This document shows, one piece after another, positions 1 to 10,248 of a DNA stretch of 64,000 bases. The first letter of the stretch is position 1. Each line of letters starts with the position of its first letter. The DNA comes from Escherichia coli. GTDB lineage: Bacteria > Pseudomonadota > Gammaproteobacteria > Enterobacterales > Enterobacteriaceae. The notes beneath the pieces were generated by a model. It had not been told where the DNA came from. It did no database searches and saw only the letters and a list, made by a program, of their open reading frames with translations. The translations under genes were made by a program, and so were the position numbers. The stretch is from assembly GCF_030013205.1 (NCBI RefSeq), contig NZ_CP122648.1; one strand, written 5' to 3'.

Positions 1-171
1 AGCCAGAATGTGGCGGATACTGGTTGAGCAGATAACGTCCGTATGCCCGGTGACCACTTCCGGACGGGAGATTGTGATGTCTGACATTATCGGTTTCCCT
101 TTTGGTTTATAAACGAAAACGCCAGCCCTGTTCAGGCTGACGTCAGTGGAATGAAGTATGGTGAGTGATAT

Positions 172-594
172 TTACCGGTTCTGGTGCAGAAGCTGCAGAT
201 GACGAAGAGTACGGACATCCTCCCGGGCCTGTTCGATACAGGGCAACAGTGCTACCGAATCCGTTTTATCCTCATCGTTGTCAAAGATAATTCCCGATTC
301 GCAGTCGATATTGTCCTGCAGCCACGCAATGAGGATATCCAGCGCTGTTTCAGTGGTTAATGGCATCACGCTCTGTATCACTGTATTGTCTTCCGGCAAC
401 TGATGAGGGCTGGCAGAAGTCGCCGGTGTTTCGGTAGCGTCACGTTCATTCACCACGCGGAGTGAATAACCGTTTTCAGCGACTTTGTTAATCAGTTCAG
501 CGAGCTCAATACCATCGACGTCAACGACAATGCGCCCCATGTTCAGCGCCTGCGCATTAATGCTGTCGGCTTCCAGCGTCAGGGCCAGTTTCAT
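172..594 (-). CDS. hypothetical protein directly downstream of the CbtA-like toxin gene (YeeW-like position)
   Basis: 140-aa ORF; its start overlaps the toxin stop by 4 nt (ATGA), suggesting co-transcription; no family recognised. Confidence 0.5.
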   Translation of the reverse strand: MKLALTLEADSINAQALNMGRIVVDVDGIELAELINKVAENGYSLRVVNERDATETPATSASPHQLPEDNTVIQSVMPLTTETALDILIAWLQDNIDCESGIIFDNDEDKTDSVALLPCIEQAREDVRTLRHLQLLHQNR

Positions 595-968
595 TGTTTC
601 GCCCCCGGATGTTTACCCAGGGTAATGTTATTTACCGTTCTGTAGTTGTCGCGTGTCATCAGGCCGGTTGCCCGGCGTGCCCGGAGGATATCAATACTGT
701 TTATTAACTGAGAACGGGTACAGGCGCTGAATCCCGGCTGGTCGGTACGTACCAGTGCGTATTTTTCAACGAGAAAGTTCACCGCATCGCACAGTGAAAT
801 GCCTGCCTCAATATGCTGCTCAATCACACGTTCATCAGCGAACGGTGTGTCATTCAGCGTAAGGCCGTAGTGCTGATCCAGCAGTCGGGTGAGCAGTGTC
901 TGCCAGATTTCAACCGGAGACGGGCGTGAACTGGCCGCCTGCCCGGGTAATACAGGTAATGTTTTCAT
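591..968 (-). CDS. CbtA/YeeV-family toxin (type IV toxin-antitoxin)
   Basis: Protein begins MKTLPVLPGQAASSRPSPVEIWQ, matching remembered YeeV/YkfI/YpjF toxins; six-frame ORF trimmed by 47 aa to this internal Met. Confidence 0.75.
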   Translation of the reverse strand: MKTLPVLPGQAASSRPSPVEIWQTLLTRLLDQHYGLTLNDTPFADERVIEQHIEAGISLCDAVNFLVEKYALVRTDQPGFSACTRSQLINSIDILRARRATGLMTRDNYRTVNNITLGKHPGAKQ

Positions 969-1057
969 ACTGAAGATTTTCCTGATATGCAGAGATGAAA
1001 AATGGAAAAGTGGCGTGGTGAAAGCACCAGGCCGGAGCAGAAGGTTATTCTGGAGAG

Positions 1058-1426
1058 TTACTTTTTCGTTTCGGGCGTCGGATAAACAGCCATATAAACG
1101 TAGCCACAACTGCCGAGGGTGTCGGCTTCGCAGGTCAGCCCTTTTGCATACAGCGTGACGGTATGCTGATGGCGGGGATTCAGTTCACCGCTGGTGAGCA
1201 TGAGTTCCAGTTGTTTCATCAGCAGCGGAAAGGCCTGGTCCAGGTGGTACGAATCCGCGTCGCTGAACCGCCCTCTGATACCGGCGCGGTCGGCAAGGTA
1301 ATGCAACCGGTTGCCTTCCTGTACCAGACGGGCACCAAAACAGGGCGTCACGGTGCAGGGCAGTCCCCACCAGGTGCGGTCGTTATTGTCGTCGGGAAGC
1401 GTTGTCCCGGGGAGTGTGTCTGACAC
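1058..1426 (-). CDS. CbeA/YeeU-family antitoxin
   Basis: 122-aa ORF just upstream of the toxin with ~89 bp spacing, as in K-12 yeeU-yeeV; sequence resembles YeeU-family antitoxins. Confidence 0.75.
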   Translation of the reverse strand: MSDTLPGTTLPDDNNDRTWWGLPCTVTPCFGARLVQEGNRLHYLADRAGIRGRFSDADSYHLDQAFPLLMKQLELMLTSGELNPRHQHTVTLYAKGLTCEADTLGSCGYVYMAVYPTPETKK

Positions 1427-1505
1427 GATAAAATCCTCACAGAAAATTGGTTAAGAATGGTCCGGTGGTGGCGATAATTCTGCTCTTCTGAATGCCCTTC
1501 CAGAC

Positions 1506-1727
1506 TCAGTTCAGGGTGACGCTCATCAGCCGGACATACGGACCAAAACTGTCCTTCCGGCGTTCTGCAAACACAGCCAGCACACCGGGAATATCCTGTA
1601 CTTCACGGCCGGTATATGTATCCGTGCTACCGTGCCAGCGGTATTTACCGGTACAGAACGGAAAAAGACGGGATGCAGGATGCTGACGGTGAATACGCAT
1701 GGCTTCACCACGGGTGATGATTTTCAT
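1506..1727 (-). CDS. YeeT/YfjY-like protein (DUF987)
   Basis: 73-aa ORF MKIITRGEAMRIHRQHP...LMSVTLN, same length and near-identical to remembered YeeT; located upstream of the antitoxin as in CP4-type elements. Confidence 0.7.
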   Translation of the reverse strand: MKIITRGEAMRIHRQHPASRLFPFCTGKYRWHGSTDTYTGREVQDIPGVLAVFAERRKDSFGPYVRLMSVTLN

Positions 1728-2865
1728 GAGAATAGTCCTCCTGAATGTGAAAGTAAGAAACAGCTGAGAAAGAGAAACTGAAGTGATATGAAGGTGATTG
1801 TGACGGTGACGGGTTAAAGCAGACCGTGTTCCGCAAAGGAGAAAACCTGGCTGCCACCGATTATCAGATGGTCCGGTACCAGAATGCCAGTCTGGTGCAG
1901 TATGCTGACAGTATCACGTTAATTGCAGCATAAAGTGATGAGAGGCTAATGGAAGTTAAAACCAAAGCATTTCCGTCGTTGTTTATCCCGGGAGACGCCG
2001 GAAAAAGTGATTTCCCACACACGTTATAAACTTCCCCCTGCGAAGCTGAAAGCCTTCAGCTCTGCGGTAGACACCGGCTGGCAGAACTGACAATGAACAA
2101 ACTTTACGATCGCGTTCCGGCTTCTGTCTGGAAATATGTCACCTGAACGTTTGGTAATCACAGCGGAGTTGCACCAGGTGTTATCTGCTCTGTGCGATTC
2201 TTTTTGTCGCAAAGCTGTTGTCGGGAACTAGGATAATACCGGGAACGTTAAGCGGTATAGCGACAACAAAGAATTCGAAATCAAAAGGGAATGGTGTCCG
2301 GAGGTGTGGGTGATCATGGGCTGATTTTCGGGTATTAACGGCCTGTATCTGCTGAGGTTTTCTCGTATTTACCGGGGATCCGGTGCGTTACTGTCTGGCA
2401 CAGCAAACGCAGAGGCGGCGGGGCGTTCTGCCCCGTTGATTCCGGATAATCCCTCCCCTGTAACCTACTGCAACAGTACAAATACACTGACGCCTGAAAC
2501 GACAGCCAGAATCAGCACAGGCAGTAACGTCAGTAGAAAGAGCAGACGATCGGTATTTCGGTAATAGCCTGAGGAAGCTGTTGACGCGCAACTCGGGCAG
2601 CATTCCGTATTATGAGTAATTGCGTTACCACAGTCCCTGCACTTCTTTTTGCGTATCACGATCGCTCCCTCTCCACGCCTTATCCGTAACCTGTTTTTTA
2701 CATTAAAAAAACAACGCTGAAAATTCAACCGTCAGTCCGGAGACGACCGTTCGGGTTATCACAGAGTGCCTGAGACATTGCCCGGTTGGAGATGACTTCA
2801 GGGACTCTGCACATTTTTTACAGCGTGGTTATTCCGTATGAACGAAACCATACGGAGATTTAACC

Positions 2866-8692: not shown

Positions 8693-8762
8693 TTCATTAA
8701 AGTAATTTATTTCGCTATCTTTTTTCCGGTTACTCACAAAGAAAAATATTCATAAAATAATT

Positions 8763-8781
8763 CCCGGGCTGGCAGCCCGGG
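8763..8781 (-). terminator. hairpin between the convergent eptA-like and integrase genes
   Basis: CCCGGGCTG/CAGCCCGGG inverted repeat, A/T-rich on both sides. Confidence 0.45.
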
Positions 8782-8788
8782 ATGATTA

Positions 8789-10051
8789 CTATTTTAATGG
8801 ATTGTTAATCTTTGCATATTCAAACGGGCTGATACATTGTTCTCTGTTCGCATCCAGAAAATCTGCCCACCACTGTAGCATCAGTCGACGTTCTTCCAGA
8901 TGTTCTGCTTTATGGATATACGCAGCACGTACACCATTACGCTCCTGATGGCTCATCTGACGTTCCACAGCATCGCGGGACCACAAACCTGATTCAATCA
9001 ATGCACTGCACGCCATCGCCCGGAATCCATGGCCACAGACTTCCCGGGTTGTGTCATACCCCATCACCCTCAGGGCTTTATTTACAGTATTTTCACTGAT
9101 TGGTTTACGCGGGTCATGTGCACCCGTAAATATCAGACCATTTTCACCTGCCCATGTCTGAAGTTCCGTCAGTATGGCTACAGCCTGTTTGCTGAGTGGC
9201 ACAAGATGTGGTGTTCGCATCTTGGAGCCCCGGTGTGAGAATTTTACGCCTGGCAGAGGTTCGCGTTCGGCTGGAATAGTCCACATGGCATTGTCAATAT
9301 CAATTTCAGACCAGCGGGCGTATCTGAGTTCACTGGAACGAATAAAAACCAGTAAATTCAGCATAACGGCAAGCTGGGTGACAGGTTGCCCCTTGTAACT
9401 GCCAATACGCGACAAAAGTTCAGGCAGGCGAGAAAGATCAAGAGCGGGGCGATGCTGGCGTTTTACCGTGGTCAATGCACCAGCCATATCCAGAGCCGGG
9501 TTATATCTGATGATGCCAGACTGTACGGCATAACGCATTACAGCAGATATTCTTTGCTGCAGACGACTGGCGATTTCATAAATTTGTTTAGCTTCTGCAG
9601 CACGAACAGGGATAAGCAGGTCCGGGGTACTGAGTGTTGTGATATCCCGGTTGCCGATAAAGGGGAAAACGTGTGTCTCGAGACTTTTGAGTACTTTATC
9701 GCTGTGTGATTGTGCCCATTGTTTATTACTGGCATGCCAGCGTCGTGCAATATGTTCAAAAGAGAGTTGTAAATCAGGGACTACTTTTTTAGCTCTTTTC
9801 TGTTCGCAAGGGTCAACCCCCTCCGAAATCAGTTTTCGGGCCTCATCCCGTTTTGTACGAGCTTCGGAGAGAGAAACTTCCGGATACACACCAAGTGCCA
9901 GGGTTTTCTCCTTACCCAGAATACGATAACGGAGACGCCAGTAACGGGAACCATTAGGATGAACCAGCAGGAACATGCCGGCCCCGTCAGTGAGTTTATA
10001 AGCCTTGTCAGTGGGCTTTGCAGCCCGGATTTTTGCGTCAGTCAGTGCCAT
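8789..10051 (-). CDS. P4-type tyrosine integrase
   Basis: 420-aa ORF beginning MALTDAKIRAAKPTDKAYKL, transcribed away from the adjacent tRNA-Phe 3' end. Confidence 0.9.
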   Translation of the reverse strand: MALTDAKIRAAKPTDKAYKLTDGAGMFLLVHPNGSRYWRLRYRILGKEKTLALGVYPEVSLSEARTKRDEARKLISEGVDPCEQKRAKKVVPDLQLSFEHIARRWHASNKQWAQSHSDKVLKSLETHVFPFIGNRDITTLSTPDLLIPVRAAEAKQIYEIASRLQQRISAVMRYAVQSGIIRYNPALDMAGALTTVKRQHRPALDLSRLPELLSRIGSYKGQPVTQLAVMLNLLVFIRSSELRYARWSEIDIDNAMWTIPAEREPLPGVKFSHRGSKMRTPHLVPLSKQAVAILTELQTWAGENGLIFTGAHDPRKPISENTVNKALRVMGYDTTREVCGHGFRAMACSALIESGLWSRDAVERQMSHQERNGVRAAYIHKAEHLEERRLMLQWWADFLDANREQCISPFEYAKINNPLK

Positions 10052-10204
10052 AGTTCAGCCTTCTGAATGCGTTAAAGAGGGTATAAATTCTGTCGAACTG
10101 GGGTATACCCGCAATTATACCCACACAATGGGGTTGATGTGGGGGGAATCTGGTTGAGTTCGGTAGAATTGATTTGGAGGCAGAACGCTTAAATTGTGGC
10201 GTTC

Positions 10205-10237
10205 TGAAACGAAAAACGGACCTCCGTGGAGGTCCGT
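10205..10237 (-). terminator. intrinsic terminator downstream of tRNA-Phe
   Basis: 9-bp stem ACGGACCTC/GAGGTCCGT with 4-nt loop, followed on the minus strand by a T-run. Confidence 0.6.
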
Positions 10238-10248
10238 TGATATGAATT

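Follow-up and report, generated by a model that had tools for sequence, protein, structure and literature searches.

An 11.1-kb, partly decayed GI-pheV island with a P4-type integrase at a tRNA-Phe gene of Escherichia coli

Genes and features of the locus

The window analysed here is a 64,000-nucleotide stretch of the E. coli contig NZ_CP122648.1, and it is 100% identical to the porcine ETEC chromosome ETEC4067 and to six other porcine ETEC chromosomes. It carries the tRNA-Phe(GAA) gene pheV (10249-10324, minus strand; ARAGORN; Rfam tRNA model, 68.3 bits), which is an intact integration target and is base-for-base identical to pheV of K-12. A first-pass annotation made from the sequence had placed a tRNA-Phe-associated island with a P4-type integrase at this position, with the integrase start approximately 200 bp from the tRNA 3′ end. 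Both statements hold, as pheV is followed after 197 bp by an intact integrase gene encoding 420 amino acids, and then by the cargo genes that the annotation had listed (Table 1). The cargo assignments agree with Pfam and with the RefSeq annotation of the identical record, except that the name ‘EptA-like’ proved loose.

Table 1. Features of the island and of its tRNA-proximal end. Positions are those of the window, with negative numbers lying to its left.
Feature	Position	Strand	Basis or remark
DUF4942 gene, last gene of the island, 5′ part in the window	1..87; whole gene -755..87	-	RefSeq; Pfam DUF4942, E=4e-66
DUF957 small protein gene (yee module)	172..369	-	RefSeq
DUF5983 (YeeW-like) gene fragment lacking the C-terminus	397..594	-	Pfam DUF5983_N, E=6.8e-28; RefSeq: partial
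cbtA, type IV toxin-antitoxin toxin gene	591..968	-	Pfam CbtA_toxin, E=1.1e-58; RefSeq
cbeA/yeeU-family antitoxin gene	1058..1426	-	Pfam CbeA_antitoxin, E=5.4e-55
DUF987 (YeeT-like) gene	1506..1727	-	Pfam DUF987, E=2.7e-39
RadC/JAB (YeeS-like) gene, 3′ remnant of 23 codons	1814..1885	-	translation ILVPDHLIIGGSQVFSFAEHGLL*
Junction of 10,386-bp internal deletion, 6-bp microhomology GGTACC	1875..1880		BLAST against the full-length EC556 copy
Hha/YmoA-family gene remnant, frameshifted, lacking the N-terminus	1971..2146	+	RefSeq
Gene for a 65-aa hypothetical protein	2465..2662	-	RefSeq; Pfam zinc-ribbon match, sub-threshold only
YagK/YfjJ-family (‘inovirus Gp2’) gene	2866..3435	+	Pfam YagK_YfjJ_C, E=2.2e-46
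DUF7828 and zinc-ribbon protein gene	3601..3984	+	Pfam DUF7828, E=2.1e-31
ISEc20 (IS110 family), 1,457 bp	3969..5425	-	limits from multi-copy matches, query 470-1926, 99.7%
Ail/Lom/PagC-family outer-membrane beta-barrel gene	5756..6313	+	Pfam Ail_Lom, E=3.5e-23
Gene for a 59-aa hypothetical protein	6567..6746	+	RefSeq; no Pfam match
Phosphoethanolamine-transferase-family pseudogene	7089..8692	+	Pfam Sulfatase, E=7.8e-51
P4-type tyrosine integrase gene, intact, 420 aa	8789..10051	-	three Pfam domains
Island-borne hairpin (CGGACCTCC/GGAGGTCCG) with T-run, directly downstream of pheV	10211..10236	-	read from sequence
Proximal att repeat, last 23 nt of pheV (TGGTGCCCGGACTCGGAATCGAA, + strand)	10249..10271		sequence

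The integrase matches Arm-DNA-bind_3, Phage_int_M and Phage_integrase (PF13356, PF22022 and PF00589) above their cut-offs, and its catalytic motifs are present (R238, K277, H341-x-x-R344, H368 and Y378). Its assignment to the P4 type is based on this domain architecture and on the literature; the NCBIfam model PRK09692 scores 248 bits, which is under its cut-off of 434 bits.

At the other end of the island, the genes for CbtA and CbeA are adjacent on the same strand with the antitoxin upstream, and they form a predicted type IV toxin-antitoxin pair. The radC-like gene yeeS had been described as apparently missing from its expected place upstream of yeeT. This is correct for most of the gene, but its last 23 codons persist, and the translation of this remnant matches the last 21 residues of a full-length 158-aa JAB protein in strain ETEC1716.

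Within ISEc20, the transposase gene (3998-5194) is preceded by a non-coding 5′ end of 231 nt (5195-5425), and the protein matches the Pfam families DEDD_Tnp_IS110 and Transposase_20 as well as the NCBIfam model transpos_IS110 (239 bits; cut-off 140). Homology of the flank to other genomes ends at window position 3972-3974, and the final few codons of the adjacent DUF7828 gene come from the end of ISEc20.

The phosphoethanolamine-transferase gene is indeed a pseudogene. In a global alignment with an intact homologue (99.1% identical by BLAST), it shows one 1-nt deletion near position 7651 that shifts the frame after ...ATYTP. Its more specific name fared less well, since the intact homologue scores only 94-157 bits against the NCBIfam models for EptA, EptB and CptA (cut-offs 404-900). 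The same homologue scores 39-66 bits against the models for the MCR families (cut-offs 1,075-1,250). From sequence comparison, the gene would therefore be assigned only to the general sulfatase-fold phosphoethanolamine-transferase superfamily.

Limits of the island

Window positions 1-10248 contain no stretch that repeats the tRNA 3′ end, either as an exact k-mer of at least 11 nt or as a fuzzy match with up to 4 edits, in agreement with the earlier observation that the first 10 kb hold no direct repeat. The first-pass annotation had placed the distal end outside the window and had suggested searching upstream for a repeat of at least 15 bp. Such a repeat is found 866 bp to the left of the window, at -887..-866 (L001 18113-18134), where 22 of the 23 nt of the tRNA 3′ end are present and a single C is deleted. 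Directly joined to this repeat, TGGTG-CCGGACTCGGAATCGAA, are 48 bp that in K-12 follow pheV and contain its terminator (the two together L001 18065-18134; flank at K-12 coordinates 3110442-3110489). The island is 11,114 bp long between the repeats. Of the two options that had been offered, an island larger than 10 kb or a decayed distal att site, the first is correct, albeit by little (11.1 kb), while the second appears not to be, as the site is present with a 1-nt deletion.

At pheV, the island-borne hairpin stands in place of the native terminator, AAAAACCCGCCTTGTGGGCGGGTT, which is now found next to the distal repeat. The island rebuilds the tRNA 3′ end, supplies its own terminator hairpin and leaves the 22-nt repeat adjoining the displaced native terminator. 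Nucleotide composition by itself would not flag the island, whose GC content of 0.494 is nearly equal to the 0.507 of the flanking core, with segments ranging from 0.43 to 0.57.

The same element at pheU

A copy of the same element resides at pheU, the other tRNA-Phe gene, in three porcine strains (EC556, EC571 and EC581). It differs from the window copy in its tRNA site and in being full length, with 21,506 bp between the repeats. Its neighbours in EC556 are dicD and cadC, and it sits upstream of an older integrase remnant, which is also found at this site in K-12. The pheU and window copies share 99.82-99.88% nucleotide identity, identical protein accessions (the DUF957 protein of EC556 among them) and the same 22-nt distal repeat. 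They also have in common the ept frameshift, the ISEc20 insertion and the truncated DUF5983 gene, which ends identically in EC556. Because the pheU copy has both, the frameshift and the insertion predate the split between the two copies. The two identical tRNA-Phe genes are both used by one element, which occupies pheV here and pheU in the three other strains. A chromosomal inversion joining the two copies through hybrid flanks is contradicted, as in each strain the element has the flanks specific to its own site on both sides. Strain ETEC1716 shows serial integration, with a second CP4-like island lying on the tRNA side of this island's integrase end, across a 22-nt att copy.

The pheU copy bears on the origin of the single missing nucleotide in the distal repeat. 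Local decay at pheV after integration, marking an old and immobilised insertion rather than a property of the element, might be expected of a partial tRNA copy that is under no selection, and imperfect repeats have been discussed as island-stabilising (Nhu et al. 2024, PMC11537424). However, the same 22-nt form flanks a 99.8-99.9% identical element at another attB, pheU, with a different outer flank, and this form (TTCGATTCCGAGTCCGG-CACCA) is listed as attR for the pheV islands of many unrelated strains (PMC11537424). We therefore regard local decay as improbable. The 1-nt deletion instead appears to travel with the element, and its recurrence in many published islands and at a second attB site suggests that it derives from the attP of the element. 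With such an origin, strand exchange would fall on the outermost 3′ nucleotides of the tRNA gene.

Internal deletion and decay

Alignment with the full-length EC556 copy by BLAST reveals that both edges of the 10,386-bp segment absent from the window copy carry GGTACC. The window copy lost this segment after its arrival, through deletion between these two microhomologies. The segment encodes an AlpA-type excisionase, two hypothetical proteins, a YeeP-like GTPase, Ag43, DUF905 and DUF932 proteins, an antirestriction protein and most of RadC. As a result, the yee module of the window retains intact yeeT, yeeU and cbtA genes with only 23 codons of radC, whereas the whole radC-yeeT-yeeU-cbtA set is intact in the pheU copy; the yeeW-like gene is truncated in both. 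Both the full-length copy and that of ETEC4068 have the alpA gene (Pfam Phage_AlpA, E=2e-8); in the window, tblastn detects no AlpA homologue. In the sister lineage ETEC4068, the distal 7.5 kb and the att site were lost by a different deletion.

Excision of the CP4-like element CP4So requires AlpA (PMC5148205). We infer the mobility of the present island from comparative genomics only. The window copy keeps both att sites and an intact integrase gene yet lacks a directionality factor of the AlpA type, and is therefore probably fixed in place unless AlpA comes in trans. Its retained CbtA/CbeA pair would favour retention of the island. Other CP4-like islands elsewhere in the same genome (6-7 places per record) could provide AlpA in trans, and immobility is therefore not proven.

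A fuller reading combines these points. In it, the 22-nt repeat would be the element's own attP rather than a product of decay, and the integrase would exchange strands inside the terminal CACCA of tRNA-Phe or immediately beyond these five nucleotides. The full-length form with AlpA would remain mobile between pheU and pheV in porcine E. coli, while the window copy would be a derivative immobilised in recent times. We consider the case for this combination to be evenly balanced.

Nature of the element and its neighbours

Some features might suggest a degraded P4-like satellite prophage rather than a non-phage integrative island. Specifically, a P4-type integrase is present, the O157 relative bears the annotation ‘phage-like element SpLE3’, and the YagK/YfjJ protein is labelled ‘inovirus Gp2 family’. 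Nevertheless, this origin is very unlikely, as neither the window copy nor the full-length 21.5-kb copy contains capsid, tail, primase or other phage-type genes, and Pfam scans and annotation of both copies reveal no phage replication, capsid or packaging genes. In a tblastn search of phage sequences with the integrase, the best match in a genuine phage genome is about 40% among the matches listed, which do not include P4; the top match (67%) comes from a Salmonella chromosome contig that the phage collection includes.

Comparison with other genomes establishes the unoccupied state of the site. In K-12, yghD lies 148 bp from pheV with nothing between them, whereas in the present genome 11.1 kb separate the K-12-type downstream flank from the tRNA gene, so that no K-12-like yghD junction abuts it. 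Nor do the same genes flank pheV in all E. coli, as the specific arrangement occurs in 22 of 5,426 complete genomes. When a synthetic island-free junction was compared with the same 5,426 genomes, 209 of them, all of the kps background, covered at least 80% of it. In these the junction is contiguous, in single pieces of at least 99.4% identity. One example is ST2747, with the gene order kpsF, IS110 remnant, pheV, yqgA.

The kps capsule locus, located between the island and yghD, is separate and not part of the island. That the whole 32.7-kb non-K-12 stretch from yghD to pheV (kps together with the CP4-like module) forms a single large pheV island with a decayed distal att site can be dismissed as already refuted: K-12 lacks everything between the two genes and the literature classically links capsule loci to pheV islands, but kps is divided from the CP4-like module by the att repeat and by the 48 bp that natively follow pheV, terminator included, the kps-side flank adjoins an intact pheV in the 209 genomes where the island is absent, and the pheU occurrence has no kps locus beside it.

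Taken together, we are highly confident that positions -866..10248 are an 11,114-bp, partly decayed copy of a GI-pheV/CP4-like integrative island of about 21.5 kb, inserted by its integrase through site-specific recombination of attP with the final 23 nt of a tRNA-Phe gene. The finding has little importance beyond bookkeeping, in that the limits of the island are resolved and it is cleanly separated from the neighbouring kps capsule locus. The island also provides a compact and well-documented example of decay at pheV and pheU, with two independent microhomology deletions in sister lineages and a pattern in which the excisionase gene is lost while the integrase and a toxin-antitoxin pair persist. 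In addition, the occurrence of the 1-nt-deleted repeat at pheV and pheU alike gives a small but useful hint as to where this very common integrase family cuts.

Comparison with known systems

The island is of an ordinary and already well-described kind. It belongs, as a small and decaying example, to the GI-pheV islands, whose published definition is an intP4 gene adjacent to pheV (Nhu et al. 2024, PLoS Genet, PMC11537424). As in other members, intP4 lies directly 3′ of pheV with yqgA across the tRNA gene, the final ~19-23 nt of pheV recur as a direct repeat beside K-12-type backbone at the distal end, here in the exact published attR form, and the site is unoccupied in other strains. The modular mosaic with IS elements and a yee-module remnant is likewise shared. 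Published GI-pheV islands range from 9.7 to 110 kb, and the small ones mostly lack a distal repeat (PMC11537424); the present island is near the bottom of this range, yet has kept its repeat. It further differs in lacking the classical virulence modules pap, sat, iuc, efa1, nle and fec, and in occurring in porcine ETEC and edema-disease strains.

With SpLE3/OI-122 of O157:H7, the island shares a PagC/Ail-family gene and an integrase that is 98% identical in amino acid sequence (strain Sakai). The Ail/Lom protein, in contrast, is only 58% identical to the PagC-like protein ECs_3850 of Sakai.

The K-12 elements CP4-44, CP4-6 and CP4-57 (yee, ykf and yfj modules) resemble the island in the gene order RadC, DUF987 (YeeT), YeeU/CbeA, CbtA (YeeV) and YeeW-like, in a YagK/YfjJ-family gene, and in entry into a tRNA or tmRNA gene via a P4-type integrase. 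The full-length copy also shares AlpA, a YeeP-like GTPase, Ag43 (flu) and an antirestriction gene with these elements, whereas the window copy lacks all four along with most of RadC. Unlike the K-12 elements, the island uses tRNA-Phe as its att site and carries the ept-like and Ail/Lom cargo beside its integrase.

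Island boundaries at pheV

Over its first 12 kb, the window matches the chromosome of the porcine ETEC isolate ETEC4067 at 100% identity (NZ_CP122685.1; window position = record position - 826,598), as it does those of six further porcine isolates. This identity made it possible to read on beyond the left edge of the window (negative positions), which the first-pass annotation could not do. ARAGORN detects a single tRNA in the window, a minus-strand tRNA-Phe(GAA) (10249-10324) that is identical to pheV of K-12. The nearby integrase carries the expected motifs (R238, K277, H341-x-x-R344, H368 and Y378) and shares 98% identity with the integrase of SpLE3/OI-122, the pheV element of O157 Sakai. 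The tRNA prediction and the Pfam domains of the integrase (Table) bear out the earlier proposal of a tRNA-Phe island with a P4-type integrase.

The first-pass annotation had also found no repeat of the tRNA end within 1-10248 and had placed the distal end outside the window; both statements proved correct. Ungapped pattern searches with the last 23 nt of the tRNA, at a tolerance of up to 3 mismatches, matched only the tRNA itself, since a 1-nt deletion makes the distal copy invisible to such searches. It was detected when the yghD-pheV-yqgA region of K-12 was compared with the ETEC sequence by BLAST, where 71 bp of K-12 reappear at window -935..-866, corresponding to the last 23 nt of pheV and 48 bp of downstream flank that includes the native terminator. 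Read directly, the distal site is ...AAAAACCCGCCTTGTGGGCGGGTTCTTAAGAATTAG/TGGTG-CCGGACTCGGAATCGAA/AATTTC..., and the repeat preserves 22 of the 23 nt of the tRNA end with one C missing. Its location defines an island of 11,114 bp between repeats, with DUF4942 as the last gene. Overall, the original observation is confirmed, and its interpretation is supported with these and the following refinements.

Table. Features of the pheV island, its surroundings and related loci. Positions are those of the window unless a handle is given; L001 and L002 cover the kps side left of the window, and L006 is the ETEC1716 locus.
Feature	Position	Strand	Remarks
kps capsule locus	-22,508..-936 (L001 ~1-18064 + L002 34091-42001)		group-2 gene order; between yghD and the displaced pheV terminator
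radC remnant	1814-1885		last 23 codons
ISEc20	3969-5425		
ISEc20 non-coding 5' end	5195-5425	minus	231 nt
Integrase ORF	8789-10051	minus	420 aa; Arm-DNA-bind_3, Phage_int_M and Phage_integrase domains
Island-supplied pheV terminator	10211-10236		hairpin + T-run; tRNA side of the island
Segment lost from the window copy			AlpA-family gene (68 aa; Pfam Phage_AlpA), two hypotheticals, YeeP-like GTPase, Ag43, DUF905, DUF932, antirestriction gene, first ~135 radC codons
Second, different CP4-like island of ETEC1716	L006 12374-20214		in tandem; RelE/ParD pair at the distal end

A capsule locus beside the island

In K-12, only 148 bp separate yghD from pheV. Leftward from the displaced native terminator, the order in ETEC4067 is an IS110 transposase remnant, kpsFEDUCS, a serotype region bordered by two IS1 copies that are both frameshifted, kpsTM, and yghD. 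The IS110 remnant at the pheV-side edge of kps is also present in island-free strains. A synthetic 'empty' junction was assembled in which the kps-side flank and the native terminator are joined to an intact pheV followed by yqgA. This junction is contiguous at identities of at least 99.4%, for example in ST2747, and at least 80% of it is covered in 209 of 5,426 genomes. The existence of the empty junction indicates that the island entered a pheV site already flanked by kps, and that kps is not part of the island. The specific arrangement of Zn-ribbon, ISEc20 and Ail/Lom genes is found in only 22 genomes.

A full-length copy at pheU

The porcine strains EC556, EC571 and EC581 carry the same element at pheU, the other identical tRNA-Phe gene, between dicD and cadC. 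This copy is 21,506 bp long and 99.82-99.88% identical to the window copy; its distal repeat is the same 22-nt form, but the sequence outside it is different. Both copies share the ept frameshift, the ISEc20 insertion and a truncated DUF5983 gene. Relative to the pheU copy, 10,386 bp are missing from the window copy. GGTACC occurs at both edges of the deletion, and a single GGTACC is left at window 1875-1880. No AlpA homologue is left in the window. The radC-like gene, previously noted as apparently missing, is deleted for its first ~135 codons, but its last 23 remain. An inversion between islands at pheU and pheV was considered as the origin of the two locations and rejected because the flanks are site-specific in each strain, both being pheV-type in ETEC4067 and both pheU-type in EC556.

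Cargo and composition

All cargo genes named in the first-pass annotation were recovered by Pfam and RefSeq annotation. The proposed EptA-like pseudogene (7089-8692) is a pseudogene: compared with an intact homologue of 99.1% identity, it has a single 1-nt deletion, near 7651. It belongs to no narrower group than the broad phosphoethanolamine-transferase superfamily and is orthologous to neither EptA nor MCR; NCBIfam gave no assignment to EptA, EptB, CptA or MCR. The ISEc20 transposase family is named 'IS110 family RNA-guided transposase' in NCBIfam, and from this name a bridge-RNA-like guide would be expected in the non-coding 5' end of the element. Folding of this end (z = -2.1) is too weak to bear on such a structure. 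When the island and its flanks were scanned with Rfam (E<=0.01), the tRNA was the only hit, and the non-coding end therefore lies outside all curated families. Overall GC content fails to set the island apart from the core (0.494 versus 0.507), with deviations confined to sub-segments, namely the Ail/Lom and ept region (0.43) and ISEc20 (0.57).

Elsewhere in the window, a three-gene TRAP transporter operon (22232-25067) lies between yggM and hemW, two genes with nothing between them in K-12. A gene for a hypothetical protein of 243 aa (39938-40669) is located between speA and speB, a position that is empty in the K-12 annotation, and a prohibitin-family protein gene (44837-45745) between tkt and cmtB is not in that annotation.

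Related islands

Eleven sister genomes of the ETEC4068 type retain the AlpA-to-Ag43 segment; in these, a different deletion has taken away 7.5 kb at the distal end together with the distal repeat, the native terminator and some of the IS110 remnant. ETEC1716 has gained a second CP4-like island, inserted between the tRNA and the integrase end of the present island, across an att copy of 22 nt. The att copy of this second island, TGGTGCCCGGACTCGGAAT-GAA, carries another 1-nt deletion. Such a tandem arrangement is expected from accretion by repeated integration into a regenerated tRNA. A stretch of 114 bp lying between the start of the integrase and the tRNA (window 10135-10248) is found again, at 96.5% identity, immediately downstream of pheU in K-12-like genomes (2501-2614 of L008, the K-12-type pheU locus). 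This copy of the integrase-proximal end, with an integrase pseudogene next to it, is what is left at pheU of an older relative of the island.

A locus near setC in GPEC87-32-644 (L007 5245-21180) holds much of the island content in the same order, and the shared stretch runs from the ept-like gene, here intact, to DUF4942. Its middle section differs by additional IS elements plus an ECs1377-family and a GNAT gene, and the locus shows neither the Ail/Lom gene nor an integrase. Shared island modules thus also exist outside tRNA-Phe sites.

Mechanism and place among known islands

These comparisons show site-specific insertion at the tRNA-Phe 3' end with target duplication, at pheU and pheV alike, and later decay by microhomology deletions, frameshift and IS insertion. 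Judging from the families involved, integration would be catalysed by the P4-type integrase. The type IV toxin-antitoxin pair CbtA/CbeA would disfavour island loss. Excision of CP4-like elements requires an AlpA-type excisionase, as shown for CP4So (PMC5148205), and by this analogy the window copy is probably fixed at its site unless AlpA arrives in trans. The 1-nt-deleted distal repeat of the window island recurs in identical form at two different attB sites and in many published islands (PMC11537424), which suggests that the deletion derives from attP. If so, crossover would sit at the very 3' terminus of the tRNA.

A prophage identity was rejected, as phage-type genes are absent from both the window copy and the full-length copy. 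Rather, the island belongs to the GI-pheV class, modular mosaics in which intP4 is the sole conserved gene (Nhu et al. 2024, PMC11537424). Members of this class carry yee and flu modules and repeats of 23 or 19 nt (PMC11537424). In contrast to the specific island arrangement, the integrase family is found in 3,327 genomes, which agrees with the 52% prevalence given for GI-pheV by Nhu et al. (PMC11537424). Compared with this class, the window island stands out in two respects only: it is very small yet keeps its distal repeat, and it has no classical virulence module.
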